From Bacillota bacterium (GTDB lineage Bacteria; Bacillota; Clostridia; Christensenellales; SZUA-584): DNA of 64,000 nt. Below are positions 40,633-64,000 of the stretch, piece after piece. Position 1 is the first letter of the stretch, and every line of letters begins with the position of its first letter. The notes below the pieces were generated by a model, which had not been told where the DNA came from, did not search any database, and saw only the letters and a list, made by a program, of their open reading frames with translations. The DNA lies in contig JAEWTW010000057.1 of the NCBI GenBank assembly GCA_023397655.1, positions 50,842 to 114,841 of the forward strand, read 5' to 3'. The position numbers were made by a program, and so were the translations under genes.

Positions 40633-40651
40633 CGTATTAACTATTTCTATG

Positions 40652-41641: not shown

Positions 41642-41654
41642 AAAGGAGTAAAAT

Positions 41655-41900: not shown

Positions 41901-41911
41901 TTTTTCGGTTC

Positions 41912-41938: not shown

Positions 41939-41947
41939 TATCGCGGG

Positions 41948-42096
41948 GAACTGGGCCTCAAAAAGCAGTATCACGAGTTGAACAAAAAGAACAGCGTGTT
42001 CGACCAGATGTATAAGCTTTACACCAAGCGGCTGGTGGGCAAGGACGCGTTCAAGGCAATGACGGGCATCGAGGTGAAGGCGATGCCGAAGCCGCA
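41948..42096 (+). pseudogene. Terminal anchor-A remnant with no toxin tip (right edge of the island)
   Basis: It codes ELGLKKQYHELNKKNSVFDQMYKLYTKRLVGKDAFKAMTGIEVKAMPKPH, then runs into unrelated sequence just upstream of the GH3 gene. Confidence 0.7.
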
Positions 42097-46078: not shown

Positions 46079-46107
46079 CGTTTATCTCCTTATGAAAATG
46101 ATTGTGG

Positions 46108-46947: not shown

Positions 46948-47113
46948 CGGGGTATCCCTCCTGTAATCAGATACACATCCGGGTGTTTGCTAATCTCCAA
47001 AGAAAAACCGGCAACCGCCGGGGGTGCTTCAATCTTTGCTGAAAGCCTGGAACTCACCGAAATTATTATACTGAATATAAAGCCTTTGCGGGTATGCACG
47101 AAGCACACATCGG

Positions 47114-48709
47114 TCACTCATAGACGATATCAAAACGGGCTCCCGCAAGCTGCGCCTCCGCCATCGGCCGCAGTTCCTCGCTCAGCTTTACGGTGCCAAG
47201 GTACGGCAGCTCCAGCAGCGGTGTCAGGTCTTCGATGGGGTTCTGCTTCAGGTCAGCGTAGGTGAGGTGTTTCAGCTGTTTAAGTGGAGAAATATCGCGG
47301 ATACGGCAGTTGAGCAGCACCAGCCGCTCCAGATTGTGGAAACGGACGACGATGCTGATATCGTGCAGCTGTGTGCTCTCCACCCAGAAGGAAACAAGCG
47401 AGGTCATACCGTCGCAGGCTTGTACATTGACGTCGGTGATCGGGCAGCCCACCAGCATGATATCCTTCATGCCCGTCAGACCTTTGAGCGGGGAGAAATC
47501 CTGAATATCTCCGTTGCCGTTCAGGTGCAGCGTTTCCAGCTGCGTGAGGCCGGACAACGATGAGATGTCGTCCACACTGTTCCAGTCCAGTTTCAGGCTG
47601 CGCAGGTTCGGGAACCGGGCGAGCGCACCGATCTGGGTGAGGCGCATGTCTGCCGGTGCGCCGGGGTTGTCATTGGAGAGATCCAGCTCGGTGACCGCTG
47701 CCGCCTGCTCAATGGTGATTGTGCCGGATTGGCGGTCCATCGCGACGCGCACACGCTGCTCCAGCAAAGCGTCGTCGAACACCACCGGCTGGTTGTCGAT
47801 GAACAGACCATCCACCACGGGCACACTGATATCCGTGAAGCGCCCCGCTGCGTAACCCACCACGATCAGCAGCACAGCCGCAAGAACTGCAGCGGCTGCC
47901 CCGATAGCGCGGCCTTTGATGCGGCTGCCATATGCGTTGATCGCTCGGTACAGCTGCAAGGCACTGTGGTAACGCTTCTTCGGATCGAACGCCGTGCACC
48001 GGACGATGATGCGCCTGAGCGCCGCGGAGCGTACCATCGGCAGAGCGGTGGAAAAATCGCTGCGTCCCGTCAGCATCCACGCCAGCACCACGCCCAGCGC
48101 GTAGATATCCGCGCGGCAGTCGGTCTGCGAAAAGCCGTACTGCTCGGGCGGAGAAAAGCCGTGCGTACCCATGAAGACGGTGTCGCTGCCTGCTCCTGCC
48201 GCATATTCACGCGCGATGCCGAAGTCTATCAGCGTCGCACGGCGCGTTTCGGGGTTAATAATGATGTTGGATGGCTTTATGTCGCGGTGAATCACCGGCG
48301 GTTTCTGACAGTGCAGATACGTGAGTATACTGCACAGCTGTTTTGCAATATCCAGCGCGTCATATTCAGGCAGCGGCCTTTGCGCATACTCATCCAGCGG
48401 CACGCCCGGTATGTATTCACGGACCAGAAAGACATGCCCGTCCATTTCGTATTTGCCAGAAAAACCCGCCAGACCGGGATGTGACAGGCGGGGGAGTATG
48501 TCTGCTTCGGGCAGACGGTTATCAGAGGCGCATCGGCGTGCTACCGCCATGCCGCCGTCCGATTTGGATTTGAGCAGGTAGGTTTCGCTCTGTTCGTTTT
48601 CCGACAGCAGCTCCAGCGGGACATACTTGTCCAGCAATGCGGCGGGAAATTGCTCCGTACCGAACTGCCGCGCAAAAGCGGTCGCGTGCGATTCCGGCGT
48701 GCTACTCAT
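47114..48709 (-). CDS. Ser/Thr protein kinase with TM helix and extracellular LRR domain
   Basis: ATG 48709 overlaps the upstream stop (ATGAGTAG). HRDIKPSNII, DFGIA, TM segment AIGAAAAVLAAVLLIVVGYAAG, then FDDALLEQRVRVAMDRQSGTITIEQAAAVT plus LRR units. Confidence 0.85.
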   Translation of the reverse strand: MSSTPESHATAFARQFGTEQFPAALLDKYVPLELLSENEQSETYLLKSKSDGGMAVARRCASDNRLPEADILPRLSHPGLAGFSGKYEMDGHVFLVREYIPGVPLDEYAQRPLPEYDALDIAKQLCSILTYLHCQKPPVIHRDIKPSNIIINPETRRATLIDFGIAREYAAGAGSDTVFMGTHGFSPPEQYGFSQTDCRADIYALGVVLAWMLTGRSDFSTALPMVRSAALRRIIVRCTAFDPKKRYHSALQLYRAINAYGSRIKGRAIGAAAAVLAAVLLIVVGYAAGRFTDISVPVVDGLFIDNQPVVFDDALLEQRVRVAMDRQSGTITIEQAAAVTELDLSNDNPGAPADMRLTQIGALARFPNLRSLKLDWNSVDDISSLSGLTQLETLHLNGNGDIQDFSPLKGLTGMKDIMLVGCPITDVNVQACDGMTSLVSFWVESTQLHDISIVVRFHNLERLVLLNCRIRDISPLKQLKHLTYADLKQNPIEDLTPLLELPYLGTVKLSEELRPMAEAQLAGARFDIVYE

Positions 48710-49163
48710 AGCGCCCCTCCCGTCCGATGAGCGGCAGAGCAAGCTCCTGCAGCGTGGCCTGAGCGTCGAAAAAGCCGATGCCGTTGTTGAGGCAGTACAT
48801 GATAACGGCGTCCCGCTTGATCTTGGGATACAGCGGGCTTTTGCAGGCGATCTTGAGCAGCTCCTGCGCTTCATCCACGTTCATCGAGAAGCCAAACGCG
48901 AGCTGGATCACCTTGTCCCGCGAGGGCTGGCGAAGGCCGCTGAACAGCTGGTGGCCGTACGTGCGGTCGATGCCGCCGTTTTTGATCACGCGCTCACAGA
49001 CGAGGTCCTTCTCAGCACAGATACGCTGTATGTATTCGCGGAACGTCGTCTTGAGGAAGGCGCTGTCGTAGGTGTTCATGAAAGCTTTGAGGCGGGCGGT
49101 TTTAAACAGCCGGTGCATCAGCGTGCTGGTGCTCACGGCGGCGCGAACGGGTTGCTTTTTCAT
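48702..49163 (-). CDS. Small HTH-like protein, translationally coupled to the kinase
   Basis: ATG 49163 (MKKQPVRAAV) follows AAGGA. RTYGHQLFSGLRQPSRDKVIQLAFGFSMNVDEAQELL resembles an XRE-type HTH. Function is tentative. Confidence 0.45.
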   Translation of the reverse strand: MKKQPVRAAVSTSTLMHRLFKTARLKAFMNTYDSAFLKTTFREYIQRICAEKDLVCERVIKNGGIDRTYGHQLFSGLRQPSRDKVIQLAFGFSMNVDEAQELLKIACKSPLYPKIKRDAVIMYCLNNGIGFFDAQATLQELALPLIGREGRYE

Positions 49164-52115: not shown

Positions 52116-54125
52116 ATGGATACTTGGATTTTGGCACTGGCTATTGTCGTCGGCGTATTCCTGTTCTTTAAGGTCATTCTCGGCTTTCGCATCATCCCCA
52201 ACAACAAGACCGCCATCGTCGAAAAGTGGTGGTCTCCCAGAGGCTCGCTCAACGAGCAGATCATCGCGCTGAAAGGGGAAGCCGGTTACCAGCCGAAGAT
52301 ACTGCGCGGCGGCATCCATTTTTTAAGCCCGCTGATGTACAAGGTGCGCATCTGCCCGCTGGTCACGGTACCGCAGGGGCAGATCGCCTATGTGTTTGCG
52401 CGGGACGGACAACCGCTTGCACCCACACAGACGCTGGGCCGCGTGATCCCCGAAGGCAGCAACTTTCAGGATACGCGGGGGTTTCTGGAGAACGGCGGGC
52501 AAAAGGGCCCGCAGCGCGGTATCATCCGTGAAGGCACGTACGCGTTTAACCTTGCGCAGTTCATCATCATCACGCAGGACAAGATCTACTATCTGCCGAT
52601 GGGCAACCGATTTGAGGAAGCCACCATCGCCAGCATGTCCGAGCAGCTCAAAGAGCGCAACGGTTTTCGGCCCATCGTAATCAAGGGAACCGACGACAAG
52701 GTGGGCATCGTCACGGTGCACGACGGCCTGTCGCTCGCGAAGGACGACATCATCGCGCCTGCCGTGGGCACGGACCCGTCCTACCCGGAGACGTACCACA
52801 ACAACTTTCAGGACCCTGAGAAGTTCCTCAAGGCCGGCGGTTACCGGGGCCGGCAATATCAGGTGCTGGTGGAAGGCACATATTTCATCAACCGCTTCTT
52901 CGCCACGGTGGAGCTGATCGACAAATCGATCATCGACGTAGGCTTCGTGGGCGTGGTGGTATCGTACATCGGCCCCAAGGGCGTGGACTCCACGGGCGAG
53001 AGCTACAAGCACGGCGAGCTGGTGCAGATAGGCTCCCGCGGTGTGTGGCAGGAGCCGCTGATGCCCGGTAAATACGCGTTCAACCTGTATGCCGGAAAGA
53101 TCATCCGCGTTCCCACCACCAACATCATATTGAAGTGGATACGCAACCAGGCGGGCTCGCACAAGTACGACGAGAACCTGACGGAAGTCAGCCTCATCAC
53201 CAAGGACGCGTTCGAGCCGTCGCTGCCGCTGTCCGTCGTGATGCACATCGACTACAAGAAAGCGCCGCTGGTGATACAGCGCTTCGGCGACATCAAGATG
53301 CTGGTGGACCAGACGCTGGATCCGATGGTGTCCGCGTACTTCAAGAACATCGGCCAGACCAAGACGCTCATCCAGCTGATACAGGAGCGCAGCGAGATAC
53401 AGGACACCGCCTCACGTGAGATGAAGGCCAAGTTCGAGCACTACAATCTGGAGCTGGAGGAAGTGCTGATCGGCACGCCGTCTGCGTCCGAGCACGATGA
53501 TAAGATCGAAGTGATTTTGACGCAGCTGCGCGCGCGGCAGATTGCCATTGAGCAAATTGAGACTTATTCGCAGCAGGAACGTGCGGCGGGCAAGGAGAAG
53601 GAGCTGCGCGAAGCCGAATCACGGGCACAGCAGCAAACGTTCCTCACCGAGTCCGAGATCAACATACAGATCGAGAGCAACCAGGGCAAGGCGGAGTTTC
53701 AGCGTTCACTGCAGCAGGCCGCCAAGATCAAGGCCATCGCGGAAGCCGAGGCGGAGAAGGAAGCCCGCGTGGGTATCGGGCGCGCCATCGCCATCGAGGA
53801 GCAGGTGCGCGCTTACGGCGGCCCGCAGTATCAGGTGGTTCAGGATGTGATGAGCAAGTTCACCGCCGCCATACAGACCGCCGGTGTGGACATCGTGCCC
53901 AAGACGGTTATCAGCATGGGCGGCGAAGGCGGTGGCAGCAATGTCAACGCCTTTGAGATGCTGTTGACGCTGCTGATCAGCGAGCGACTGGGCGTGAAGA
54001 TGGGCGAAGCGAGTGAGGAAGAGGACGTGCGCATCAAGTCCATCAAGGACTCGATCATGAGTGCGCTCGCGAAGGGGACCGAGGCTGCCGCGGACGACAG
54101 CCAGACACCGGCACAGCCGCAGTAA
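52116..54125 (+). CDS. SPFH/band-7 flotillin-like protein
   Basis: 669 aa. N-terminal TM, an SPFH body, and a long Ala/Glu/Gln-rich coiled coil (REAESRAQQQ..., AEAEAEKEARV). Confidence 0.8.
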   Translation: MDTWILALAIVVGVFLFFKVILGFRIIPNNKTAIVEKWWSPRGSLNEQIIALKGEAGYQPKILRGGIHFLSPLMYKVRICPLVTVPQGQIAYVFARDGQPLAPTQTLGRVIPEGSNFQDTRGFLENGGQKGPQRGIIREGTYAFNLAQFIIITQDKIYYLPMGNRFEEATIASMSEQLKERNGFRPIVIKGTDDKVGIVTVHDGLSLAKDDIIAPAVGTDPSYPETYHNNFQDPEKFLKAGGYRGRQYQVLVEGTYFINRFFATVELIDKSIIDVGFVGVVVSYIGPKGVDSTGESYKHGELVQIGSRGVWQEPLMPGKYAFNLYAGKIIRVPTTNIILKWIRNQAGSHKYDENLTEVSLITKDAFEPSLPLSVVMHIDYKKAPLVIQRFGDIKMLVDQTLDPMVSAYFKNIGQTKTLIQLIQERSEIQDTASREMKAKFEHYNLELEEVLIGTPSASEHDDKIEVILTQLRARQIAIEQIETYSQQERAAGKEKELREAESRAQQQTFLTESEINIQIESNQGKAEFQRSLQQAAKIKAIAEAEAEKEARVGIGRAIAIEEQVRAYGGPQYQVVQDVMSKFTAAIQTAGVDIVPKTVISMGGEGGGSNVNAFEMLLTLLISERLGVKMGEASEEEDVRIKSIKDSIMSALAKGTEAAADDSQTPAQPQ

Positions 54126-54148
54126 GAACGACACAAATTAAACGAAAA

Positions 54149-54176
54149 GGCCCGCTGGCATCGGCGGGCCTTTGTG
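54149..54176. terminator. Bidirectional hairpin terminator between convergent genes
   Basis: GGCCCGC-TGGCATCG-GCGGGCC, flanked by AAAA and TTTGTG. Confidence 0.75.
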
Positions 54177-54203: not shown

Positions 54204-54962
54204 TCAGTCCGTCAGCCACCATGTGACGGATGCAAGATAAGGGCTGACATCCTCATGGAATGCCTTCACATACTGCTGCGCACGCTCCGCTGCCGCTGTT
54301 TCCGTGCCGAAGAAATCGTACGTCTCATGGTACGTCCATTCGTCGCTGCCCGCATAGCTGCCCGCGTCCGGCGCGGAAGCATAATCCGAAACGTGGATGG
54401 TATAATGACGCATCGCCTGCACCGCCTCCGCCAGCCGCTCGAAAATAGGCAGATGGATGCAGTATCGCGGGTCGTTGTCCCTGAGCGCTGCGAGCACTTG
54501 ATGCGCGTCCTGCCAGCACAGAGCGGATATCTCCTCCCGCTGAAACAGGAACGCCTCGGCGGGCCGGTCGTACACCAATGCATAGATTCGGCTAATCTCG
54601 TTGTTGACGAACCTGCTGCCATGAAACTGCGCTTCCCAATACACCCGGTGATCGAACAGAAACATCAGCGCGTCCGTTTCGGTGATGCCCAGCTCTTCAG
54701 CAAGCTCGCGCTCCGCGGCGGAACGAAACGTTTCGCCCACGTCCACATGCCCCGCGCTCGACGTATCCAGACAACCGGGGTACGAGTCCTTGTCGTCGCT
54801 GCGCCGCTGCAGCAGCACTTCAAAACGCCCGTCTTGCCGTACGTTGCGGATCAGCCAAACATGTGCGCTGCCGTGAAGGTCGCCGTCGCGGTGCACATCC
54901 GCACGCTTTTTGAACAGCCCGCTGCCGCTGCCGTCTTCGTTCAATATCTCGATAAGGTCCAT
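54204..54962 (-). CDS. NUDIX hydrolase (canonical Nudix box) with a C-terminal extension
   Basis: GHVDVGETFRSAAERELAEELGI is an intact GX5EX7REUXEEXGU box. ATG 54962 follows GGGAGG. Confidence 0.85.
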   Translation of the reverse strand: MDLIEILNEDGSGSGLFKKRADVHRDGDLHGSAHVWLIRNVRQDGRFEVLLQRRSDDKDSYPGCLDTSSAGHVDVGETFRSAAERELAEELGITETDALMFLFDHRVYWEAQFHGSRFVNNEISRIYALVYDRPAEAFLFQREEISALCWQDAHQVLAALRDNDPRYCIHLPIFERLAEAVQAMRHYTIHVSDYASAPDAGSYAGSDEWTYHETYDFFGTETAAAERAQQYVKAFHEDVSPYLASVTWWLTD

Positions 54963-54981
54963 CGCTAGCCTCCCTGCGGTA

Positions 54982-56346
54982 TCAGCCCAAATCTCTGAAC
55001 GCACCATCCGCCTCAAACGAAAACCATTTCATGTTTTCGCCGAAGCTGAAGAAAAAAATGCGTCCGCCGGGCCCCAGACAAACGGGTTCGGTGGCGCACT
55101 CCCGGCTGAAAAGCTGCTGTTTCGTTGCGAGATCGTACGCGGCCAGCCCGCCGGAGATGATGAAGCCGTCCTCCTCGTAAGTTTTGGTGAAGGCGACCAC
55201 CAGCCTGCCGTCTGCGGCGTTCAGCGTGGTGATGTCGTTTTCGGACGATAAGAAAGCCTCATCGCCTGTACCGTCCGTGCGAACGCGACGCACCGTGCGC
55301 GTGTCGCCGCCGTCCAAATAATATATCCAGCCACCCGTTACGGCATAGCACTGTATGAAACCTTTCGCGAGCTGCTGCGCGCTGCCGCCCTCCGCCGGGA
55401 CACGCCACAATCCGCCGTCCTCCGCTTTGGGGCAGTGATACACCCAGCCCTCCGCTACACAGGGGAGCATTGCCGTCATGTCTGATAGCTTCAGCTCACC
55501 GCCGCAGCCGAAGCTGTTGCGGTACAGGCAGCCATTGTCGCTGCCGTTGTCGTAGTACATGAAACCGCCCTCCACAGAGAGGAACGAACATATATCTTCA
55601 ACAAGACGCTCGGCCTTGCTGCCATCCGTTCGTGCACGCCAGGGCTTACTGTCTTCGGCGCTGATGTAATACAGCCAGTCGTCCATTATGTTGAGGCTGG
55701 AACCGCGGATATCACCCACGCGCACGCGTCCTGTTCCGTCCGCGCGCACCTTATAGACCGCGAAGCCCTCGCCGGGGTAAGACAGGTAAACCCAATTGCC
55801 CTGCCATGTCAGCAGTCCGCCGTGCCAGACGCCGCCGTATTTGCCGGCATTGGACAGGTTGCCCGTTGTGATGCCCGTCGTGTTAATTTCGCTGTCTGAG
55901 GCGTAGTCGGACGCGAAGGGGATATCGATTGCAAAGTCCGGCTGGTGGCGCTGTGCCCATTCGACCAATTGCTCAGAGTTCTGTGCATCCTCAAGACCCA
56001 AGGCCAGCAGGCGGTTGATCTCCATCATATTTTCTTCAGACATCAGATATAGGGCAGTGGAGGCATCCAAATATGCATCGGTAGCTGACGGGTCCAATTC
56101 GATCAGTTTCATGGCCGCCAGATATTTGGCTTTGTTATTGCCTTCATCGGTGAAACGCGAAATCAAACCGCGCAGGTCCTCTGCCGAAGATGCGGACTCC
56201 ACCAGTGCTTCATCGGTATCAGGAGCGGGGGAGAGAGCGGCAGTTGCAGCGGGTTCCGTATCCGGCGTTGGCAGCGCGGCCGGAGCACCGCATCCGGCAA
56301 TCATCAGCATCATTAGTAATATCAGAATGAACATCGTAGCTTTCAT
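54982..56346 (-). CDS. DUF5050-like beta-propeller lipoprotein
   Basis: MKATMFILILLMMLMIAGC lipobox. Repeated W.YY...D......R.DG blades (GNWVYLSY, DDWLYYIS, GGFMYYDN, EGWVYHCP, GGWIYYLD). Confidence 0.6.
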   Translation of the reverse strand: MKATMFILILLMMLMIAGCGAPAALPTPDTEPAATAALSPAPDTDEALVESASSAEDLRGLISRFTDEGNNKAKYLAAMKLIELDPSATDAYLDASTALYLMSEENMMEINRLLALGLEDAQNSEQLVEWAQRHQPDFAIDIPFASDYASDSEINTTGITTGNLSNAGKYGGVWHGGLLTWQGNWVYLSYPGEGFAVYKVRADGTGRVRVGDIRGSSLNIMDDWLYYISAEDSKPWRARTDGSKAERLVEDICSFLSVEGGFMYYDNGSDNGCLYRNSFGCGGELKLSDMTAMLPCVAEGWVYHCPKAEDGGLWRVPAEGGSAQQLAKGFIQCYAVTGGWIYYLDGGDTRTVRRVRTDGTGDEAFLSSENDITTLNAADGRLVVAFTKTYEEDGFIISGGLAAYDLATKQQLFSRECATEPVCLGPGGRIFFFSFGENMKWFSFEADGAFRDLG

Positions 56347-56372
56347 ATAAGCTTCTCCTTGCCGTTTCCATG

Positions 56373-57443
56373 TCATATCGTCAGCGGGCTTTGGCCGTCG
56401 TAATAATCGATAGCCGTCTGGAATATGCGCCGGTAATAGTCGTCCACGCGGGGCACAAAATCATCAGCGGTCACAGTCAGGCCGCTCACGCAGCGCTTGC
56501 CGTCCTCGTAAAGGCATGCGATAGCGGATACCTCGGAGACCCGGCCGCTGAACAGCTTCAGCCCGTCTCCGGCGGACAGCCGTATGATGCCGCTCACCTC
56601 TGCGGGCTGCAGATCATAATCCGTCAGCGCGTACGGCGTCTCAAACAGGTAGACGGAGTTGAACTCGCAATTGTGGAATGCGCCTTTTTTCTCCGCATAC
56701 TGCCGCACACCAAGGTAAATCACGTCTTCGAAACGGACGGTCACGCCCAGCTCCGTGACGATGCGCCCGATGCCTTCCCGGTCGGATTCGCCCGCGTTGA
56801 GGTGCCGCGACGCCGTGATGTCATACAGGCCGGGAAAGTCTGCCTTGGACATGCTGCGCCGCTGAAACCAAACGCTGGGCACACCATCTGCGCGGCTGAC
56901 GAACCAACAGTGGAACGTCTTGTGCCACAGACCCTTCTCGTGCGCTTCGGCACGCACCGCCGTACCCATCAGGCTCATCTCTTCGTCGTAAATATCCACG
57001 AGCATGCCGCCCATCGGGTCCGCCGCCTGCGGTTTGGGCACAGGCGTTTCCTGCACAGGGCGTATGGCCGCGAGCAACGGCGTAATGGCCTTATCCACTG
57101 CACCATCCGGCACATCCAGCCAGTGGCATATGGAGAGGAAGTACGCCATCTCGTCACTGGGGCGCGTACCGTCAATACGCACCGGCAGTATCGGCAGACG
57201 GTTATCGGCAGCCAGAGCCACCTCGCGCAACACCTGCAGGGATTCGTTCGAATTCCTGCTGAACAGCAGCACGACAAGCCGGGCGTTTCGCAGCGCCTGC
57301 GCGATGGATCCGGCCCAGTGGCTGCCCGTGGTCAGGTTGCGCGGGGCCATCCAGCACGGGACGCCACTGTCCTCCAGCAGCGCACACAACCGGACAGCGG
57401 CCTCGCTCTCCCGGGATGAATAGCTGATAAAAGCGTCGATCAT
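56373..57443 (-). CDS. TIR domain fused to a Nudix-fold domain with a degenerate Nudix box
   Basis: ATG 57443 follows GGGAGG. The TIR pattern is DAFISYSSRESEAAVRLCALLEDSGVPCWMAPRNL..G..W...I..AL...RLVVLLFS.NS..S..VLREV. The C-terminal half aligns with the neighbouring Nudix, but its box reads GESDREGIGRIVTELGV. Confidence 0.75.
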   Translation of the reverse strand: MIDAFISYSSRESEAAVRLCALLEDSGVPCWMAPRNLTTGSHWAGSIAQALRNARLVVLLFSRNSNESLQVLREVALAADNRLPILPVRIDGTRPSDEMAYFLSICHWLDVPDGAVDKAITPLLAAIRPVQETPVPKPQAADPMGGMLVDIYDEEMSLMGTAVRAEAHEKGLWHKTFHCWFVSRADGVPSVWFQRRSMSKADFPGLYDITASRHLNAGESDREGIGRIVTELGVTVRFEDVIYLGVRQYAEKKGAFHNCEFNSVYLFETPYALTDYDLQPAEVSGIIRLSAGDGLKLFSGRVSEVSAIACLYEDGKRCVSGLTVTADDFVPRVDDYYRRIFQTAIDYYDGQSPLTI

Positions 57444-57482
57444 GGCAAACCTCCCTGCCGCGTCACTCAAAACGCCGCCGCG

Positions 57483-58217
57483 TCAGAATACGAAGCGGCG
57501 CATTTCGCGCGCTGCCTTTGTGCGCCGGAATACCGCCTTCGCTTCGGCCAGATGCGGCGCGCAGCGGTAATGCGCCAGCCGGTGCGTGATGACCAGCTGT
57601 TTGACGTCATTGTCGCGGGCAAGCGCCGCCGCCTGCGCCGCGGACATGTGCGTGGACTCCGCCGTCCTGTCCGCTTCCAGAAATGAGGCGTCACAGAGCA
57701 GCAGGTCCGCATCGTGCGCCAGCGCACAGGCATTGCCGCACATCACCGTATCGCCGGTGTAAGCGAACACCTTGCCCTCTGCCCGTACGCGTAAGCCAAA
57801 TACCGGGTACGCATGCGACAGTTCGATGAATTCCAGTGCCACATCGCCCAGCTGCACGGCCATTCCGTGCGCCAGCGGCATGATGTCGAAGGGGTGCATC
57901 GCCCGCAGCATCTCGTATTCCGCCTCGGGTTCGGACGGAGCGAACACCGGGATATGGTCACGGTCACCCATGCCGAAGCGCTTGCGGTAGGGCAGCGCGT
58001 AGCGCAGCAGCGTCATATCCGTGATGTGATCCCCGTGCAGGTGGGACAGCACCACCGCATCCACGGCTTCCGGCGTTGTCACTCGCTGGAGCCGCGCCAG
58101 TACGCCGCTGCCGCAGTCGAGCAGCAACCGCCGGCCCGCTGCCTCCAGCAGATATCCCGATGTAGCGCGGCCCGCGGGCGCATAGGGTGCGTACATTCCA
58201 AGAACCGTCAGCTTCAT
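57483..58217 (-). CDS. MBL-fold metallo-hydrolase
   Basis: SHLHGDH motif. ATG 58217 (MKLTVLGMY) follows GGGGAGGA. Confidence 0.8.
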   Translation of the reverse strand: MKLTVLGMYAPYAPAGRATSGYLLEAAGRRLLLDCGSGVLARLQRVTTPEAVDAVVLSHLHGDHITDMTLLRYALPYRKRFGMGDRDHIPVFAPSEPEAEYEMLRAMHPFDIMPLAHGMAVQLGDVALEFIELSHAYPVFGLRVRAEGKVFAYTGDTVMCGNACALAHDADLLLCDASFLEADRTAESTHMSAAQAAALARDNDVKQLVITHRLAHYRCAPHLAEAKAVFRRTKAAREMRRFVF

Positions 58218-58285
58218 GGCATCCTCCCCGAATCTATCCGCATATAAGCATAGTGTCAGACTTTGATGTACCGGATAATCCCGCG

Positions 58286-59008
58286 TCACTCAAAACGCCG
58301 CCGCGTCATCAGAACTGCGTAGACGGTGGTCACCGCTGCCGCATAGCAAAGCATCCACAGAAAATACAGCCATACCACACCAAAATCCAACGTGCTTTCC
58401 GCGCTGTATTCCACCGTCAGATCGTGTACCGGCGGTAGTATCCAGAGTATATACGCAAGGAACGCCGCCTTTTTGACGAGCGCACCCTTCACAACAGCCA
58501 GCACGCAGAAGGCCGCGCTCAGCAGTATCGCCGTGCGCCGTCCGCGTATCAGCCGGGAGGAGGTGAACAGCCCCGATATGCTGCCGCAGTACGACGCCAG
58601 CCAGAACAGCGCAAGCCCGGACAGCGCATCCGCCGCCGTGACTGGCCGTTTGAACAGCGTTGCTCCGGTGGCAAAGTGTATCAGCAGCGGCCCCGCCACC
58701 GAGACCAGTGCGAACGCCGCCGCGAGCGCGGCCATCAGCAGTGCACGGGAAAGGAAGAACGGGCCTTTGCGCTTCAGTTTCACCAGCATGGCCTGTTCGA
58801 TCATCGGGCTGCTTAAGCCCGCGGACATCACGCCTGCGCTGAGCGACAGCACGAACACCACCAGTGCGCCAATGCTGAAGCTGGAGAGTATGTCCAGCGG
58901 GGCGATGGCGTACGCGATGCCGATGTACGCGACGAGCAGCAGCGCCGGCAGCACCAGCCGTCCGCTGTGCAGCAGTATATCCTTCTCATAAGCAAACAGC
59001 GCTTTCAT
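58286..59008 (-). CDS. ABC-2-type multi-TM permease-like protein
   Basis: 240 aa with about 6 hydrophobic helices. Its start overlaps the ATPase stop by 4 nt. Confidence 0.65.
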   Translation of the reverse strand: MKALFAYEKDILLHSGRLVLPALLLVAYIGIAYAIAPLDILSSFSIGALVVFVLSLSAGVMSAGLSSPMIEQAMLVKLKRKGPFFLSRALLMAALAAAFALVSVAGPLLIHFATGATLFKRPVTAADALSGLALFWLASYCGSISGLFTSSRLIRGRRTAILLSAAFCVLAVVKGALVKKAAFLAYILWILPPVHDLTVEYSAESTLDFGVVWLYFLWMLCYAAAVTTVYAVLMTRRRFE

Positions 59009-59868
59009 AATGTCTCCTCATATTTGACGATGCGGATGCCGTGCGCCAGCAGCATCGCCAGCAGTTCATGCCCGCAGGCCCGGTCTGCCTCAATACGCAG
59101 CATCTGTCCGCACGGGCTGATTTGCGCCGTCGCATCTGCGTTCCTCACCAGCGCGCCGATGTCCGTGCCGCCGGGCAGCGCTAGTATCACGCAGCGCGGG
59201 CTCACGCTCTGCATCATGTAACCGGTGCCATCTGCCAGTGCGCCGTTCGCAATCTGCAGCACGCGGTCTGCCAGCGCCTCGATCAGAAACGGCTCATGGC
59301 ACGCCATAACCACCGCCATACCGTCCCGTTTGCGGCGGCGTATATCGTCGGCGAAGCGCAGCTGAGAGATCGCGTCCTGACCGGACAGCGGCTCGTCCAT
59401 GAACAGCACGTCGCGCTCGGCCAGCAGCGCCTGTATCACCGCCACCTTTTGCAGCATGCCCTTGGACAGATATTTGAGCGGCGTATTCAAATATGCCGTC
59501 ATGGCAAACATATCACAGTAATGCGCGGTTGTTTTAGATTCCGCGTTCTCCATACCGCGCATGTGGTCGAGGAAGCGGGCGGCGGTCATGTTTATTTTCT
59601 CGAATCGGTCAGGGATGAGGGCGGCGCGCGTATCCGCTGCCGTTACGACATGTCCGTCGTCCGGCCGTGTCACGCCGCAGAGCAGGCGCAGCAGCGTGCT
59701 CTTGCCGCAGCCGTTTTCACCCACCAGCGCAACGGCCTCGCCGCGGCGCACATCAATACAGACGTCCTTCAGCACAGGCCGCCCGCCATAGGCTTTGCGG
59801 ATATGCAGCGCTGAGATAATCGTCGCGTCTGCCGCAGCGTCTTTGCTGTACACAGTTTCTGTGTTCAT
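59005..59868 (-). CDS. ABC transporter ATP-binding protein with an extra C-terminal domain
   Basis: GENGCGKSTLL, LSKGMLQKV, LFMDEPLSGQD. ATG 59868 follows AGGAGA. Confidence 0.85.
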   Translation of the reverse strand: MNTETVYSKDAAADATIISALHIRKAYGGRPVLKDVCIDVRRGEAVALVGENGCGKSTLLRLLCGVTRPDDGHVVTAADTRAALIPDRFEKINMTAARFLDHMRGMENAESKTTAHYCDMFAMTAYLNTPLKYLSKGMLQKVAVIQALLAERDVLFMDEPLSGQDAISQLRFADDIRRRKRDGMAVVMACHEPFLIEALADRVLQIANGALADGTGYMMQSVSPRCVILALPGGTDIGALVRNADATAQISPCGQMLRIEADRACGHELLAMLLAHGIRIVKYEETL

Positions 59869-59894
59869 CGTATCTCCTAATGTGCCGCCCGCCG

Positions 59895-61625
59895 TCATAA
59901 CCGGTAAGCTGCCATGCCGATGCGCGCCAGCAGGCGGGGGATGTTGCGCACCGGGTCGCGGTCCAGCTCCTTGATCTCCTCCGGCAGCTTGCCGTACGGT
60001 ACGAGATAAGGCGTGGTTTTTCTGTCAGCGTTCACGTCTGCACCCGTTGTCCAGCCAGTGGAGATGCGCTCGGCCATCCAGGCTCCGTGCTCCTCTTCAG
60101 CCAGAGCCTCCACATATTCCTCGGGTATCTCGCTGACGGTTTCCCCGGCGCTGCCGGCGGGGCGCATCTCATAGCCCATCTGCCATAGCTTGTCGGGTAT
60201 GCGCATGGCCTGCCGCAGGTTGGAGTACTTGAGCGTGTCGGGCAGCGCGTCAAAATCGGGGTATTTGAGCGGCCTGTCCGGATAGCGCTCCATCTGCTTC
60301 TCGTTGTAAAGCTCATGGATGGAACGCGCCAGACGCTCCAGGTCTTCCAGCTCAGGACGGGCATGCAAAGCGGGGGAGGATGCAGGAAGCACAGCCTTGT
60401 TCACAGTGCGGCTATGGATGGAGACGGCGTCAAACAGCGCGCCCAGGTCCAGCAGGCTGCCGAGCAGCTTCTTCTTATCACGCGCAAAATCCTTGGGCAG
60501 CGCGCCGCCTTCCGAGACATATGTGAGCGACAGCGTGCAGTCGCTGATGCCGACCGACGCGCGTGCCGCCTGTGTGCACTGCCTGTCCAATATGCCGTAA
60601 GCCTGCCGGTTCCACTCCTGCAGCTCGTCGCACAGTATCAGCAGGTAAGCGACGGGGTGCGCGGCGGGGCTGAGCGGCCCCATACTGAAAGGCTTTTTCT
60701 GCATCACGTTTCTATAGTAGTTGTGCAGCAGTATGGCGCTGGCGCTGTCCAGCACCGGCCAGTAGAAATATTCGGATTTGTACCGAGCGGACTGTATCAA
60801 AAAGCCGTACCACCGGAGCACGATGATGGCGCTGTAATAACCGTGGTCGATAAAGCCGCATCGCGCCATCACGTCCACAAAGCCGTCCAGCGCACTCTTC
60901 ACGGCATTGAGGTCCGCGCCTAGAGACGTATGCAGTTTGTGTGCCAGCAGATCGACCGGCCTTAGCGTGTCGATGTAACAAGCGCTGTCATACCGGCTGA
61001 GATAACTGCGTGTAAATTCGTGTTTGGGGACGATCTCGGAGATGCGGTTAAACTCGTCAAAGTTCTCGAAAGTGAGCTGAACGTTGATACTGTTGTCCGT
61101 TTCTGTAGTGCCCGCAGCGAAATCGACGAACTTGTTGAGCTGCCGCCCCACGATCTCCAACGGGTAGCCCACGTCGTGGAACAGAGAGGCGAGCCCCCAG
61201 CGGTAGAAAAACTCCTCGTGTTTGGTGTCGTAGGAGAACGGGTATTCCTGCTTGTCCATCACCGTCTCATCGAAGGCGCGGCGGTAGCGGGCGTTGGCGG
61301 CGTACACGGACAGCCCGAGCAGAAACACATTGACGGAGTGTATATAGTGGTCGCGCTGCCTGTCGATCAGCACGGCGGCGTTTTCCTCATAGCTTTTCAG
61401 CACGTCCAGCAGGTCGATGAAAGGATTGGTAGCACCCCTAAGCCGAATGCGGTAGCTGTCGAAGAAAGCCCGGTACACGGCGAATGCGTTGTCCTTGGTC
61501 TCGCGGGAGAGGAACTCAAGCGCAGCCTGCCGCATGAATATCTTGTAGCAGTGGCCCCGCTCAAGGTCTTCGAAAACCTCAAGCTTATCAAAAAAAACGG
61601 TGATATACTGCCGCAATTCACTCAT
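59895..61625 (-). CDS. HD-domain protein with a C-terminal RyR (ryanodine-receptor-type) domain
   Basis: DHYIHSVNVF...LASLFHDVGYP is the H...HD pattern. The C-terminus EEEHGAWMAERISTGWTTGADVNADRKTTPYLVPYGKLPEEIKELDRDPVRNIPRLL is the bacterial RyR pattern. Confidence 0.7.
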   Translation of the reverse strand: MSELRQYITVFFDKLEVFEDLERGHCYKIFMRQAALEFLSRETKDNAFAVYRAFFDSYRIRLRGATNPFIDLLDVLKSYEENAAVLIDRQRDHYIHSVNVFLLGLSVYAANARYRRAFDETVMDKQEYPFSYDTKHEEFFYRWGLASLFHDVGYPLEIVGRQLNKFVDFAAGTTETDNSINVQLTFENFDEFNRISEIVPKHEFTRSYLSRYDSACYIDTLRPVDLLAHKLHTSLGADLNAVKSALDGFVDVMARCGFIDHGYYSAIIVLRWYGFLIQSARYKSEYFYWPVLDSASAILLHNYYRNVMQKKPFSMGPLSPAAHPVAYLLILCDELQEWNRQAYGILDRQCTQAARASVGISDCTLSLTYVSEGGALPKDFARDKKKLLGSLLDLGALFDAVSIHSRTVNKAVLPASSPALHARPELEDLERLARSIHELYNEKQMERYPDRPLKYPDFDALPDTLKYSNLRQAMRIPDKLWQMGYEMRPAGSAGETVSEIPEEYVEALAEEEHGAWMAERISTGWTTGADVNADRKTTPYLVPYGKLPEEIKELDRDPVRNIPRLLARIGMAAYRL

Positions 61626-61732
61626 ATTTTCGCTGACCTCGCAATTTCATTTTTCAAGTGACCCGGCAAGGGGAGAGCCGGCGGTGCTGCCGGATTACCG
61701 AAGTTAATTTTATCCGATTATTTCCTTATAAG

Positions 61733-61778
61733 CAAGAGATGCTAGTCAATATAATCAAGAGATGCTATTCAATGTAAT
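61733..61778 (-). repeat. Tandem 23-bp direct repeat in the operon upstream region
   Basis: CAAGAGATGCTAGTCAATATAAT followed by CAAGAGATGCTATTCAATGTAAT (3 mismatches), about 110-150 nt upstream of the HD-RyR start. Confidence 0.8.
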
Positions 61779-61787: not shown

Positions 61788-61817
61788 GCAAAACAAAAGG
61801 CGCTCTGCTGAGCGCCC
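61788..61817 (-). terminator. Rho-independent terminator of the upstream lipoprotein gene
   Basis: GGCGCTC-AGCA-GAGCGCC followed by TTTTGTTTTG on the minus strand. Confidence 0.75.
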
Positions 61818-61852
61818 TTTGCTGTTACGGACAGACCGATACATCTCCCAAT

Positions 61853-63136
61853 TTACCGTTTGCCCTTATCATCCTTGCCCGGCTTGTCGTTGTCCGGCTT
61901 GCCGCCATGACCGCCGCCGTCGCTGTCGTTATCATTGTCATTGTCATTGTCAGTGTCTGAATCATTCTTGCCTTTGTCAGGCTTGCCTTTATCTTCCGGG
62001 CCATCGCCGGCTTCTTCCGGCGCATCGCCCCAGCCGCCGCTCTCCCAATTGAAATCGAATTCCCACACCAGCAGATTTTCGATAAGCGCGGGATCAAGAC
62101 CCAGCGCCGCCACTGCGGCCATAAAGTCGCCCCGGGCTTTCGCTTTGGCGGCTTCAAACATGGCCTTTCCGTCTTCCTTGGCCTGCTGGAACGCCTGCTG
62201 TGCGGCAGTTTTGGCCTGCTTCCAGGCGTTTTTGTCCTTGTTGTCCTTAAAAGCCTGCTGCGCAGCTTCTTTGGCCGCTTTAAACGCGGCTATCGCGGCG
62301 GCTTTTGCTTCGCGGTGAGCCTGCGCAGCGGCATGCATTGCCTCCGCATAGGCTTCCTTTGCCGCTGTCAGTATGGCCTTCTGCTCATCGGTCAGGCCTT
62401 CAAGCAGGGGAGAAAGGTCCCCGTACATGCCGAGTGCGTCTCCGACGAGATGCGTCAGGTCACCCATGCGCATATCCTCGTACTTCGCAATTGCGTCTTC
62501 CATGCTGAGGCCCTCGCTGTCCGCCAGATAGCTGATCAGCAGGTAACGGCCGGGTGTGAGCCCATAGCTTTTGGCAACCTCCGCTATATCGTCCGATACG
62601 TCGGATGCGTATATGGGGCACTCCAGACCCAGAGCGGTCAGGGATTCCTGCGCCTGCGTCTCAATATCGGTGATCAGGTCGTCTTCCACGTCGCCGTACG
62701 CGGTGATCACGATGGACGGGTCCGTTTCCGCCGGAGCCAGATAACCGTCTGCCGCCAGCGTGCCGATCAGCTGATCCACTGCGTTTTCATAGGTCAAGCC
62801 AACGACATCACAGTTCAGAATTATCGACTCGCCGTCGTCGTTGTACGCCGTTATGCCCAGCACGATACCGCCCTTGATCGCCAGCTGAACGCTGGGGTTA
62901 ACATCCAGCGACACATAGCCAACGCCCTCTGTCTCAATGGGCTGAGCCGTGCCTGCTGGTGCTGCGGATGGCGCTGCGGATTCAACGTTCGTCGCTAGCG
63001 CCGCCGTCTGCATGGGTGCTGCTGTGACCGGTGCCGTATCCGGCCCGGCGGAGCAGCCCGTCAGTACTGTAGCTAACATGAAAATGAGTGTGATTGCGCC
63101 CGCCGTGATACGGCCGGCTTTGGTGCTTAGTTTCAT
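61853..63136 (-). CDS. Lipoprotein with an RsgI-type DxNPS domain, an Ala/Lys/Gln-rich helical region and an Asp/Lys/Gly-rich tail
   Basis: Lipobox LTGCS. YVSLDVNPSVQLAIKGGIVLGITAYNDDGESI. The tail is DSDTDNDNDNDNDSDGGGHGGKPDNDKPGKDDKGKR. Confidence 0.65.
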   Translation of the reverse strand: MKLSTKAGRITAGAITLIFMLATVLTGCSAGPDTAPVTAAPMQTAALATNVESAAPSAAPAGTAQPIETEGVGYVSLDVNPSVQLAIKGGIVLGITAYNDDGESIILNCDVVGLTYENAVDQLIGTLAADGYLAPAETDPSIVITAYGDVEDDLITDIETQAQESLTALGLECPIYASDVSDDIAEVAKSYGLTPGRYLLISYLADSEGLSMEDAIAKYEDMRMGDLTHLVGDALGMYGDLSPLLEGLTDEQKAILTAAKEAYAEAMHAAAQAHREAKAAAIAAFKAAKEAAQQAFKDNKDKNAWKQAKTAAQQAFQQAKEDGKAMFEAAKAKARGDFMAAVAALGLDPALIENLLVWEFDFNWESGGWGDAPEEAGDGPEDKGKPDKGKNDSDTDNDNDNDNDSDGGGHGGKPDNDKPGKDDKGKR

Positions 63137-63188
63137 GGTTTCCTCCTTGGTTTTTTATTTGTAAATTTAAATGGCAATTCCGGATGTG

Positions 63189-64000
63189 TCAGCGATTGCT
63201 TTTGCCGCCGTCTTCGCGGTTGTCTCCGCTCTTGCCGCCGCTGCTGTCTTTACCGCCGCTCTTGCCGCCGTTGTCTGAACCACTGTCTTTATCTTTATCC
63301 GGTTTTTCATTGCTGTTGGGCTTGTCCGGCTTTGCATTGTCGTCCTTTGCGTTATCCGGCTGCCCACTGCTTTTTTCCGGCTTCGCACTGGCTGTCGGCT
63401 TGGGCGTGGGGGAGGGCTTTCCGGCGGACACGCTGGTATCCGGTTTTTGGCTGCTCTGGCTGCCGCTGCCCTGCGGATGCTGCTTCTTGTCAACAGCGGT
63501 GATCATGTCGTCCATACCCATGCTGCTGTCAATGCCAAGGTTCGCCGCGTTTTTCCTGAGAAGCTCCAGACCCGCGCTTTTGTGCTGTTTTTCGGCGTTT
63601 TCGAAGCTTTCTTTGGTGCTCTGCAATACCAGCACATTCACGGTATCTCCCGCGGCGCTGCTGACGATCTCCAAAGTTTGCTGTTCGCTGATGCCCGGCG
63701 TATCGCCGAAATGCGCCACCAGCACATGGCCGTTTTCTTTGAGCCATCCGCCGTCTGCGGCAGCGTGGACAAGCGCGTCCAGCGCATTGGCAATGGGTAG
63801 CCCTTTCAGTTGCATGTTCTCAAGCAGCGCAGCGGCGTCCTCGTTGCCCGCTTCTGCCGAAAGCACGATGTCGTTTTCGTCAACGCTGAGCGTGACACTG
63901 GGGTTGATATCGATGGTGTAATAACCGGCAGCCTGTGCAGTTTGAGCGGGTGTGAACGTCAGCGCTGCAATCAGCATCAACGCGGCTGCAACAGCGCACA
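63189..64000 (-). CDS. Paralogous DxNPS-domain secreted protein with a Lys/Asp/Gly/Ser-rich tail; N-terminus off the window
   Basis: YYTIDINPSVTLSVDENDIVLSAEAGNEDAAALL. The frame stays open to position 64000 (CAVAAALMLIAALTF is the signal h-region), so the true start lies outside the window. Confidence 0.65.
   Translation of the reverse strand, partial: CAVAAALMLIAALTFTPAQTAQAAGYYTIDINPSVTLSVDENDIVLSAEAGNEDAAALLENMQLKGLPIANALDALVHAAADGGWLKENGHVLVAHFGDTPGISEQQTLEIVSSAAGDTVNVLVLQSTKESFENAEKQHKSAGLELLRKNAANLGIDSSMGMDDMITAVDKKQHPQGSGSQSSQKPDTSVSAGKPSPTPKPTASAKPEKSSGQPDNAKDDNAKPDKPNSNEKPDKDKDSGSDNGGKSGGKDSSGGKSGDNREDGGKSNR

Follow-up and report, generated by a model that had tools for sequence, protein, structure and literature searches.

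Thoeris defence systems (types I to XI) combine ThsB, a TIR-domain protein, with an effector that binds an ADP-ribose (ADPR)-derived signal, and in type I a SLOG domain serves as the sensor. A connection of RyR-type domains with TIR signalling dates from 2026 and concerns phage counter-defence alone: two preprints reported that phage proteins with RyR/Repeat12 domains (PF02026) defeat Thoeris by acting on the TIR-made signals (PMC13232231; 10.64898/2026.06.04.730250). Here, we analyze a predicted operon of seven genes, g1 to g7, located on a 64,000-nucleotide stretch of DNA from an uncultured bacterium of the class Clostridia, phylum Bacillota (GenBank assembly GCA_023397655.1, contig JAEWTW010000057.1, positions 50,842 to 114,841; this whole stretch is termed the window in the following). 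The operon encodes a TIR domain fused to a degenerate Nudix fold (g5), a Nudix hydrolase (g7) and a protein that joins an HD-like N-terminal domain to a RyR/Repeat12-like C-terminus (g1, type HD-like-RyR). An earlier note on this DNA had proposed the seven genes as a candidate module for nucleotide signalling, defence or stress, or else as an unrelated gene cluster. A nucleotide-signalling module centred on TIR finds support: the TIR and RyR proteins are linked by recurrent neighbourhood, and the RyR family is linked to TIR domains by fusions. The full seven-gene set had to be given up as the unit. We favor, with a probability of roughly 0.4, a TIR-signalling module of the Thoeris type, in which a host protein with a RyR domain would serve as receptor or effector and a Nudix enzyme would clear the signal. 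The object of interest is the linkage of TIR, dead Nudix, live Nudix and HD-like-RyR, not the seven-gene set, and the case for it is built on comparative genomics.

The two phage proteins characterized so far provide the yardstick for the RyR domain of g1. In RyDEP (gp78 of mycobacteriophage DyoEdafos), H75 and D117 form a catalytic dyad, while the adenine is stacked on by W78 and the phosphates are contacted by H100; further homologues are nanomolar sponges, and such sponge-type phage proteins retain the dyad residues without being catalytic (PMC13232231). RyR Tad (gp68 of Pectobacterium phage CB1) binds 3'cADPR, 2'cADPR and cyclic ADP-ribose (cADPR) itself via H129/W132, K147/H154 and K170/D171 (10.64898/2026.06.04.730250). 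The H/W/D pocket residues are needed for the binding or cleavage of 2'/3'cADPR (PMC13232231; 10.64898/2026.06.04.730250).

A TIR Domain Fused to a Degenerate Nudix Fold

The 356-residue protein g5 was modelled by AlphaFold2 (AF2) with an overall predicted local distance difference test (pLDDT) value of 87 and consists of two domains (Table 1). For the N-terminal TIR domain, Foldseek retrieved the TIR domains of SPARTA, SARM1 and AbTir, and the ThsB_TIR profile matched right at its cutoff (21.2 bits). The catalytic-position glutamate is retained without exception in 18 homologues, and in an alignment with a solved TIR structure it falls on the glutamate of the W-x-x-x-E motif. There is no second TIR domain and no SLOG domain in the operon, and g5 encodes the only TIR domain in the window.

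The closest structural relatives of the C-terminal domain are Escherichia coli YfcD (2fkb) and type 1 isopentenyl-diphosphate isomerase; the ADPR-bound regulator NrtR (3gz8) is also among the matches. At the position of the Nudix box, g5 reads RHLNAGESDREGIGRIVTELG, that is, the leading glycine and two of the three catalytic glutamates are gone. This is a property of the whole family, as none of the 36 clusters of TIR-Nudix fusions carries a canonical box. The RE..EE core is replaced in all fusion segments that were extracted (34 of the 36 clusters) and is kept in the nearest standalone homologues, which points to a Nudix fold that is non-catalytic and, by prediction, binds a ligand as a sensor. 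NrtR sets a precedent for the sensing of ADPR by a Nudix fold (PMC9503650). Taken as a whole, g5 looks like an active TIR domain joined to a non-catalytic Nudix fold. With this assignment, the count given in the earlier note, according to which a fifth nucleotide-processing product with a pseudo-Nudix domain exists besides HD, MBL, TIR and Nudix proteins, has to be corrected to four, because the pseudo-Nudix resides in the TIR protein itself. In some sources homologues of g5 are labelled type 1 isopentenyl-diphosphate isomerases; we rejected this label, since g5 reaches 46 bits and g7 reaches 70 bits where 127 would be required. At what we take to be the position of the catalytic cysteine in E. 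coli Idi, g5 reads ASRH.

The last gene of the operon, g7, encodes an intact counterpart. It matched NUDIX with 60 bits, and its box, GHVDVGETFRSAAERELAEELGI, conforms to the canonical pattern G-x5-E-x7-R-E-U-x-E-E-x-G-U. Identity between g7 and the Nudix-like half of g5 is about 30%. A C-terminal extension of about 80 residues is uncharacterised. With about 16 clusters, the family of this extended form (245-267 residues) is small, and it is distinct from the common form of 184-196 residues. Nudix domains of the g7 type also occur fused to YfbR-like HD 5'-nucleotidases (PF12917/PF13023), namely in the proteins P0382, P0383, P0389 and P0390, the HD family involved being unlike the N-terminal domain of g1.

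A Host-Encoded RyR Domain Joined to an HD-Like Domain

The first gene of the operon encodes a protein of 576 residues, which the earlier note had called HD-RyR. The RyR part of that call is well supported: Pfam RyR scored 57.3 bits (cutoff 27.4), RyR repeats in the PDB were matched with an E value of 2.6e-21, and residues 431-576 were modelled with pLDDT values of 81-92. With Foldseek, which was informative for this part of the protein alone as the model of the N-terminal domain is too poor, the RyR part resembled the complete Repeat12 of human RyR3 over about 200 columns (E 3.6e-7), and it is for this reason that we assign two repeats, one degenerate and one canonical, to the single chain. 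The HD part of the call drew no profile match, and what speaks for it are conserved histidines and aspartates together with sub-threshold similarities. An alignment of 26 diverse family members shows no variation at R91-D92-H93, H96, D151, D260-H261, H301 and D333 and hardly any at H150, and the His/Asp motifs follow the order typical of HD proteins. In three divergent members, Pfam HD matched below threshold over the H..HD segment (E 0.017-0.15), and hhalign, with a probability of 66%, paired LFHDVGYP with a genuine HD motif, the match being confined to the motif. A profile search of the PDB with the N-terminal domain remained empty, and a PDB sequence search with g1 returned RyR matches alone.

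The ligand pocket was compared with those of the phage proteins. H513, W516 and D555 of g1 align without gaps with H129, W132 and D171 of gp68, and their spacing equals that of H75, W78 and D117 in RyDEP. The RyR fold and this aromatic/acid core argue for a ligand of the adenine-nucleotide or ADPR type. The consensus pocket of the g1 family reads H-W-(V/K/T)-(T/S)-(L/Y)-D and is shared by those members that are fused to TIR domains, and the copies located beside TIR-Nudix genes in the loci L182, L087 and L001 retain H-W-R-H-K-D.

With more than 1,191 matched clusters the g1 family is large, and an exhaustive search with the N-terminal domain alone yielded 1,081 representatives at 50% identity. 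Three main architectures occur, the N-terminal domain alone (about 400 residues), the same domain with one RyR repeat (about 575 residues) and with two RyR repeats (about 750 residues). A TIR domain is present at the C-terminus in 3 of the best 120 of the matched clusters. Among the 63 representatives (50% identity) with at least 600 residues, 51 contain RyR and seven contain TIR_2. Genetic contexts were inspected for five g1 homologues irrespective of their architecture. A TIR gene ends 20 nucleotides (nt) upstream of the homologue in L177, and the homologue is followed by a gene for a DUF4062-NACHT protein in L180. Outside this set of five, a TIR-fused family member precedes a TIR-LRR_5 gene in L174. 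Relatives of HD-like-RyR were absent from the IMG/VR viral contigs and the plasmids searched, and we therefore regard the g1 family as cellular. When the same collections were searched for TIR-Nudix proteins, the viral contigs gave one weak TIR-only match and the plasmids gave matches to standalone Nudix or TIR proteins only.

Conservation of the TIR-Nudix Neighborhoods

Thirteen distinct loci with usable flanks, drawn from the approximately 36 clusters of the TIR-Nudix family, were compared (selected loci are listed in Table 1). The general picture is that the TIR-Nudix gene has three recurrent kinds of partners: g7-type Nudix genes in four loci, HD-like-RyR genes in 5 of the 13 loci and in four different arrangements, and genes for SLOG-like proteins with transmembrane (TM) segments in five loci. 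The g7 homologue directly follows the TIR-Nudix gene in L087, L169 and L173 (61-69% identity), and the adjacency of g5 and g7 thus persists across rearranged contexts. Homologues of g1 are situated within 10 kb of a TIR-Nudix gene in the window, L087/88, L001, L089 and L182. By our own estimate, a gene that is present once per genome of about 3 Mb would be found within +/-10 kb of another given gene in about 0.7% of cases, and since the observed frequency is 5 of 13, the proximity is far beyond chance. The coupling of g1 and TIR genes is conserved, if less tight than in a fixed operon of two genes.

In the sister clade (L001, L002, L003, L089 and L182), the gene immediately following TIR-Nudix specifies a protein of 548-582 residues with a SLOG-like N-terminal domain and four to five TM segments. 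Pfam matches of the N-terminal domain to YpsA, YAcAr and DprA were below threshold, and it contains the motifs TGHRDL, EGADQLC, PLP and WDG..GT. A PDB profile search and PADLOC were both empty for the SLOG-like-TM protein, which in its architecture looks like an effector of the SLOG-SLATT type; SLATT-type partners are listed among putative Thoeris effectors in a survey of such systems (10.64898/2025.12.03.692087). A standalone version of the SLOG-like domain with 146 residues is encoded behind HD-like-RyR in L087. The Thoeris-like pairing of TIR-Nudix with SLOG-TM proteins in the sister clade argues for the TIR-Nudix protein as the maker of a signal. The slot directly downstream of TIR-Nudix never holds both g7 and SLOG-like-TM, i.e., the two are mutually exclusive.

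The remaining genes of the operon behave differently. The gene for a metallo-beta-lactamase (MBL) fold protein, g4, is present in the species of the window alone and absent from all other TIR-Nudix loci compared. The g2/g3 pair for an ABC transporter recurs only in the syntenic relative L169, where the copies are 67% (g2) and 66% (g3) identical and where an LRR_5 gene occupies the position of g1. A DUF5050 gene recurs in a single further locus, L173, where it is 50% identical to g6 and, in a different position, follows the Nudix gene. The idea that the seven genes form one conserved unit is ruled out by these data. Because the MBL gene, the ABC pair and DUF5050 barely recur outside the species of the window, the functional unit probably consists of g5, g7 and g1, and the other genes are add-ons.

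Several further features of the related loci deserve mention. DUF4062-NACHT genes adjoin TIR-Nudix in L170 and HD-like-RyR in L180, and in both cases they are followed by a gene for a protein of about 350 residues without a Pfam match (L170 9333-10358 and L180 14441-15505, 31% identical to each other). The L182 island contains a helicase-PLD gene (DEAD/ResIII/Helicase_C/PLDc_2) and a gene for a 941-residue TIR protein (1-1457 and 4175-7000) beside HD-like-RyR and TIR-Nudix, and this context is more like a defence island than that of the window. In L094 (3828-5111), a gene combining Band_7_1 with a zinc ribbon is located directly upstream of TIR-Nudix, possibly by coincidence.

Operon Layout and Companion Genes

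Seven consecutive open reading frames on the minus strand span positions 54204-61625. The same seven genes were called on at least nine contigs that stem from independent samples of this species, and their starts were taken from these calls. The intergenic distances from g1 to g7 are 26, -4, 68, 39, 26 and 19 nt, which reproduces the layout described in the earlier note (gaps of 19-68 nt, one 4-nt overlap), and all seven genes start with ATG preceded by GGAG or GGAGG as good ribosome-binding sites. Terminators had been placed at 61788-61817 and 54149-54176, and both are real when compared with shuffled sequences: the upstream hairpin has a folding energy of -25.2 kcal/mol (z -5.1) and the downstream one of -19.3 kcal/mol (z -4.0). 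No terminator had been seen inside the operon, and we agree, as the only hit worth checking, at 55061-55084 near the end of g6, did not fold better than its shuffled versions (z +0.2). Across the region, terminator-like matches were not above chance (13 found, 8.6 +/- 3.2 expected). The seven genes share a strand and are closely spaced, and terminators are present at both ends but not inside, which is what a single transcription unit would look like in sequence. In the 227-nt leader or promoter region, two tandem copies of a 23-nt repeat, each containing TTGA(A/C)T and TTATA on the coding strand, are located between the upstream terminator and the start of g1; the repeat may represent a duplicated promoter or an operator.

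Table 1. Coordinates of the features of the operon, its surroundings and related loci. Positions refer to the window unless a related locus (L) is named; for related loci, percentages give identity to g5.
Feature	Position	Strand	Remarks
g1	61625..59895	(-)	independent gene calls, same species
g1 N-terminal domain, residues 1-420	60366..61625	(-)	all-helical, HD-like, putative metal-dependent phosphohydrolase
g1 RyR/Repeat12-like domain, residues ~421-576	59895..60365	(-)	degenerate first repeat, canonical second repeat with H513-x-x-W516...D555
g2	59868..59005	(-)	ABC ATPase; independent gene calls
g3	59008..58286	(-)	membrane protein; independent gene calls
g4	58217..57483	(-)	MBL; independent gene calls
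g5	57443..56373	(-)	TIR and Nudix fold; independent gene calls
g5 TIR domain, residues 1-135	57039..57443	(-)	catalytic-position Glu74; TIR_2 71 bits
g5 Nudix-fold domain, residues ~145-356	56373..57011	(-)	YfcD/IDI-like, degenerate box; AF2 pLDDT ~90
g6	56346..54982	(-)	DUF5050 lipoprotein; independent gene calls
g7	54962..54204	(-)	Nudix hydrolase; independent gene calls
Upstream intrinsic terminator	~61790-61821	(-)	of RsgI-like gene, 5' boundary of operon; hairpin GGGCGCUC-AGCA-GAGCGCC then UUUUGUUUUG
Downstream intrinsic terminator	54146-54173	(-)	3' boundary of operon, between convergent g7 and Band_7 gene; 10-bp stem, 7 GC pairs, U-run
Tandem direct repeat	61727..61772	(-)	repeat search; 23-nt unit, 91% identical
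Protein of 1504 residues	23377-27891	(+)	no Pfam match
Protein ending in CdiA_C toxin domain	30975-32528	(+)	
Endonuclea_NS_2 module	35829-36674	(+)	
L169			69%; syntenic (same hemerythrin/YhhN/acyltransferase flank): LRR_5, ABC, permease, TIR-Nudix, Nudix; no MBL, no DUF5050
L173			65%; LRR proteins, TIR-Nudix, Nudix, DUF5050
L087/88			63%; HD-like-RyR, SLOG-like (146 residues), TIR-LRR, 295 residues, TIR-LRR, 95 residues, DUF4062-NACHT-TPR, TIR-Nudix, Nudix
L170			59%; integrase, TIR-Nudix, two DUF4062-NACHT proteins
L182 (sister clade)			45%; HD-like-RyR adjacent, divergent
L001 (sister clade)			48%; HD-like-RyR 7.5 kb off, past TIR-LRR genes
L089 (sister clade)			48%; HD-like-RyR directly upstream, same strand
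SLOG-like protein, L001	11059-12804		
SLOG-like protein, L002	1815-3101		
SLOG-like protein, L003	1137-2885		
SLOG-like protein, L089	2226-2717		
SLOG-like protein, L182	11218-12864		
SLOG-like protein, L087	1731-2171		

No equivalog-level NCBIfam match was obtained for any of the seven genes. The ATPase g2 matched ABC_tran with 86 bits; all NCBIfam matches, DrrA among them, were below cutoff and reflect general similarity among ABC ATPases. The overlapping gene g3 encodes a protein of 240 residues with about five to six TM segments according to its hydropathy and no Pfam match, presumed to be the permease partner of g2. The g2 gene is probably accessory or a passenger. For g4, Lactamase_B_2 gave 94 bits and the HxHxDH motif is present. 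The NCBIfam profile for cyclic-nucleotide-degrading phosphodiesterases scored 147 bits against a cutoff of 400, and the closest solved structure is that of the uncharacterised Bacillus anthracis protein BA1088 (1zkp, E 6.5e-41), similarity to RNase Z being weaker. Assignment of g4 as Apyc1 was rejected, with 19.6 bits for Pfam Anti-Pycsar_Apyc1 (cutoff 50) and an E value of 7.5e-6 over about 70 residues for Apyc1 in the PDB. We thus class g4 as a predicted phosphodiesterase of the MBL fold. The product of g6 matched DUF5050 with 106 bits and is predicted to be a beta-propeller lipoprotein (signal MMLMIAG|C, lipobox IAG|C); the gene is an accessory or a passenger.

Genomic Surroundings and Searches for Described Systems

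When proteins were considered singly, PADLOC showed weak similarity of g5 to ThsB1 (E 1.8e-3) and of g7 to the candidate single-gene system PDC-S07 (E 7e-4). A literature search did not turn up any description of TIR-Nudix fusions or of host RyR-TIR modules. In a survey that distinguishes 29 putative Thoeris types (10.64898/2025.12.03.692087), the text and tables covered, including Table S1 in part, contain neither the terms RyR or Nudix nor a g5-like TIR peptide, which is weak evidence.

Three genes for LRR proteins share the strand of the operon and are located 6-9 kb downstream of it; one encodes a Pkinase-LRR protein (47114-48874), the others encode LRR_4 proteins (46108-46947 and 45314-46078). 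These proteins (45314-48874) are 36-44% identical to LRR proteins flanking TIR-Nudix in L173, L169 and L090, which suggests that the LRR protein family travels with the module; the LRR proteins in the window may be sensors of the same network.

Upstream of the operon, and set off from it by the strong terminator, are two RsgI_M-type anti-sigma-like genes (61853-63980, minus strand), and gene calls on sibling contigs place an extracytoplasmic function sigma factor just past the end of the window. Downstream, a convergent gene for a 669-residue Band_7 (flotillin-like) protein (52116-54125, plus strand) shares the terminator of g7, and genes for hemerythrin, YhhN and acyltransferase proteins follow beyond it. 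A polymorphic-toxin-like locus extends from 23377 to 42000 on the plus strand and stands out by a GC content of about 40% compared to 55-60% elsewhere; apart from the features listed in Table 1, it contains several open reading frames of about 300 residues without Pfam matches that are candidate orphan toxin/immunity cassettes. A Beta_helix_3 repeat protein of 2024 residues (2106-8180), an Mbeg1-like protein (8277-9746) and a GGDEF diguanylate cyclase (18564-19766) appear unrelated.

Discussion

The domains, the layout of the operon, the recurrent linkage of g5 with g1, the TIR fusions of the g1 family and the retention of the catalytic glutamate and of part of the RyR pocket are observed in the sequences. 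The biochemical steps, the ligands and the role in defence that we infer for the favored TIR-signalling module would be as follows. The protein g5 would act as a ThsB-like signal generator, whose dead Nudix fold would sense a nucleoside diphosphate linked to another moiety X (NDP-X) or an ADPR-like ligand and control the TIR domain. The latter would convert NAD+ to an ADPR-derived signal, which is probably an isomer of cADPR or a related compound. Binding of this signal by the RyR/Repeat12 domain of g1 would switch an HD-like phosphohydrolase effector that acts on nucleotides or nucleic acids. As the active paralogue of the sensor in g5, g7 would hydrolyze the pyrophosphate of the signal, of ADPR or of the activating ligand and in this way set a threshold and reset the system. 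A second clearing activity may be supplied by g4 in this species only, and the ABC exporter g2/g3 and g6 would be co-transcribed, lineage-specific passengers or accessories.

A number of observations weigh against this reading. The six contact residues of gp68, H129, W132, K147, H154, K170 and D171, read H, W, V, T, L and D in g1, i.e., three of the six are kept, and the complete cADPR-isomer pocket is not present. The variant pocket is family-wide and the ligand may therefore not be 2'/3'cADPR; moreover, titles of PDB entries reveal that the Repeat12 of RyR also binds plain ATP and ADP. The best 120 of the matched g1 clusters are 59-78% identical over their full length, and such high conservation is more reminiscent of a housekeeping enzyme than of a fast-evolving effector. 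In three of the five unbiased contexts of g1 homologues, no TIR gene is located within 8 kb. The N-terminal domain of g1 is HD-like and putative, unconfirmed as HD by any profile: neither Pfam (up to an E value of 5) nor NCBIfam gave a match, and the AF2 model, derived from a shallow alignment of 28 sequences, is poor at residues 56-410 (pLDDT 30-50). In loci that have a SLOG-TM effector, g1 is a third component. Finally, the conservation check showed that the gene order of the seven-gene set is not kept in relatives, an outcome that the earlier note had named as refuting, a PADLOC run on all seven proteins, which the earlier note had suggested, detected no known system and returned generic ABC and TIR similarities only, and within +/-10 kb of the operon no recognised defence genes are present, although some relatives adjoin STAND, TIR-LRR or helicase-PLD genes.

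A rather doubtful alternative is that the locus serves signal clearing or the catabolism of NAD products. Here, g1 would be a host terminator that opens or sequesters cADPR isomers in the manner of RyDEP, the HD-like domain, g7 and g4 would degrade ADPR and related nucleotides, and g5 would be a plain NADase or a signal maker with its effector elsewhere. Equivalents of both RyDEP dyad residues, H75 and D117, are indeed retained in g1; as sponge-type phage homologues keep the dyad without catalysis, these residues are no proof of a glycosidase (PMC13232231). The clustering of three hydrolases (HD-like, MBL and Nudix) would suit this explanation, as would the fusion of g7-type Nudix domains to YfbR-like HD nucleotidases, a combination suggestive of nucleotides being broken down in sequence. 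A housekeeping hydrolase is also in keeping with the strong conservation of g1 homologues and their frequently solitary occurrence. In L001, L182 and L089, where a SLOG-like-TM protein is already available as a candidate effector, HD-like-RyR is an extra. The operon in the window, on the other hand, lacks a SLOG protein and a second TIR protein and thus does not offer any other candidate effector or signal binder, and the fusion of a TIR domain to the destroyer of its own signal is harder to rationalize than its fusion to a receptor or effector.

It is unlikely that the operon is a mosaic without joint function, in which an exporter, a surface lipoprotein, housekeeping MBL and Nudix hydrolases, a TIR protein and a RyR protein share one transcription unit at a variable site of the chromosome and the recurrence of TIR, RyR and Nudix genes merely reflects shared residence in variable islands. 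Certainly, all seven genes are found together in this species alone, L169 lacks MBL and DUF5050 and carries LRR_5 in the place of g1, g4 resembles ordinary MBL-fold enzymes of Firmicutes such as BA1088, short g7-like Nudix proteins are common, PADLOC recognizes no system and the neighbors (Band_7, hemerythrin, YhhN and acyltransferase genes) are ordinary. Such a mosaic would nevertheless leave the five of 13 loci with g1 near TIR-Nudix far above the chance level, would not explain the repeated TIR fusions within the g1 family and is at odds with the adjacency of g5 and g7 across rearranged contexts. Even less probable is a variant in which, in the clade of the window, g7 is the effector and takes the place that SLOG-TM has in the sister clade, with its extension sensing the TIR signal, its Nudix domain depleting an essential NDP-X metabolite such as NAD(H), ADPR, coenzyme A or a nucleotide sugar, and g1 acting as a modulator. 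It would account for the mutual exclusion of g7 and SLOG-TM behind TIR-Nudix and is in line with the small size of the extended g7 family and the weak resemblance to PDC-S07. However, g6 intervenes between g5 and g7 in the window, and our literature search turned up no precedent; to our knowledge, no Nudix effector is known in signalling defence systems.

If bacterial RyR domains were indeed receptors or terminators of TIR signals, as both the favored TIR-signalling module and the clearing alternative would have it, they would constitute a new receptor class for Thoeris-like immunity and would be the likely evolutionary source of the phage RyR sponges and glycosidases, the anti-Thoeris RyR proteins. 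They would also provide a tractable bacterial model for the reading of adenine-nucleotide ligands by Repeat12, a question that is open for animal ryanodine receptors and cADPR, and a testable function would emerge for more than 1,000 clusters of HD-like-RyR proteins in Clostridia. The combination of a TIR protein carrying a dead Nudix fold with a live Nudix paralogue is a candidate for a design of sensor plus threshold-setting hydrolase. A broader proposal, which we put forward tentatively and hold to be on the doubtful side, is that host RyR/Repeat12 domains are receptors of TIR-made ADPR-derived signals in Clostridia, with TIR-Nudix-like, TIR-LRR and DUF4062-NACHT sensors converging on one conserved HD-like-RyR hub. 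Such a hub would amount to a new type of Thoeris-like system and would be the bacterial counterpart of the plant scheme of many TIR receptors and one hub and of animal signalling from cADPR to the ryanodine receptor; it would also account for the origin of the anti-Thoeris RyR proteins of phages.

Comparison With Known Systems

The predicted sensor half of g5 is comparable to NrtR-type sensors, with which it shares a Nudix fold that lacks the box and is joined to an output domain; unlike in NrtR, this output domain is a TIR enzyme and not a DNA-binding domain, and the closest folds are YfcD and isopentenyl-diphosphate isomerase. As a Nudix enzyme encoded together with a predicted signal-generating enzyme, g7 is, by analogy, comparable to enzymes that degrade signals, such as the ring nucleases of type III CRISPR systems and plant NUDT6/7. 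The MBL protein g4 shares its fold and a weak similarity with phage Apyc1; unlike Apyc1, it scores below the cutoff, is closest to BA1088 and is not a conserved part of the module.

RyDEP and RyR Tad, which bind or hydrolyze 2'cADPR, 3'cADPR and cADPR (PMC13232231; 10.64898/2026.06.04.730250), have PF02026 and the H-x-x-W...D core in common with g1. In contrast to these phage proteins, g1 is chromosomal and host-encoded and, with its HD-like domain of 400 residues, about three times longer. The phage proteins are homodimers, whereas g1 contains two repeats per chain and has V, T and L in place of K147, H154 and K170.

With islands of TIR-LRR and STAND conflict systems (PMC7159879), in a text search of which neither a RyR nor a Nudix-TIR architecture was found, the locus is connected through its relatives, in which TIR-LRR arrays and DUF4062-NACHT STAND NTPases are located beside TIR-Nudix and HD-like-RyR. 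The operon in the window differs from such islands in that it does not contain a STAND NTPase or TIR-LRR gene, the Pkinase-LRR protein and its LRR paralogues being encoded 6-9 kb away.

The closest parallel remains Thoeris. Just as in these systems, a TIR protein with its catalytic glutamate is encoded beside a small-molecule-binding and putatively enzymatic protein, and the pairing of TIR-Nudix with SLOG-like-TM proteins in the sister clade recalls the SLOG sensor of type I. Unlike the effectors named in the portions of the Thoeris survey covered here (10.64898/2025.12.03.692087), the candidate receptor is of the RyR/Repeat12 type. Further differences from Thoeris are that the TIR protein carries a degenerate Nudix fold, that an active-looking Nudix enzyme is the constant companion of the TIR gene, that the TIR and RyR genes are three genes apart in the window and that PADLOC finds no match at the level of the system. 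The locus is therefore Thoeris-like in outline and belongs to none of the described types, without being categorically new.

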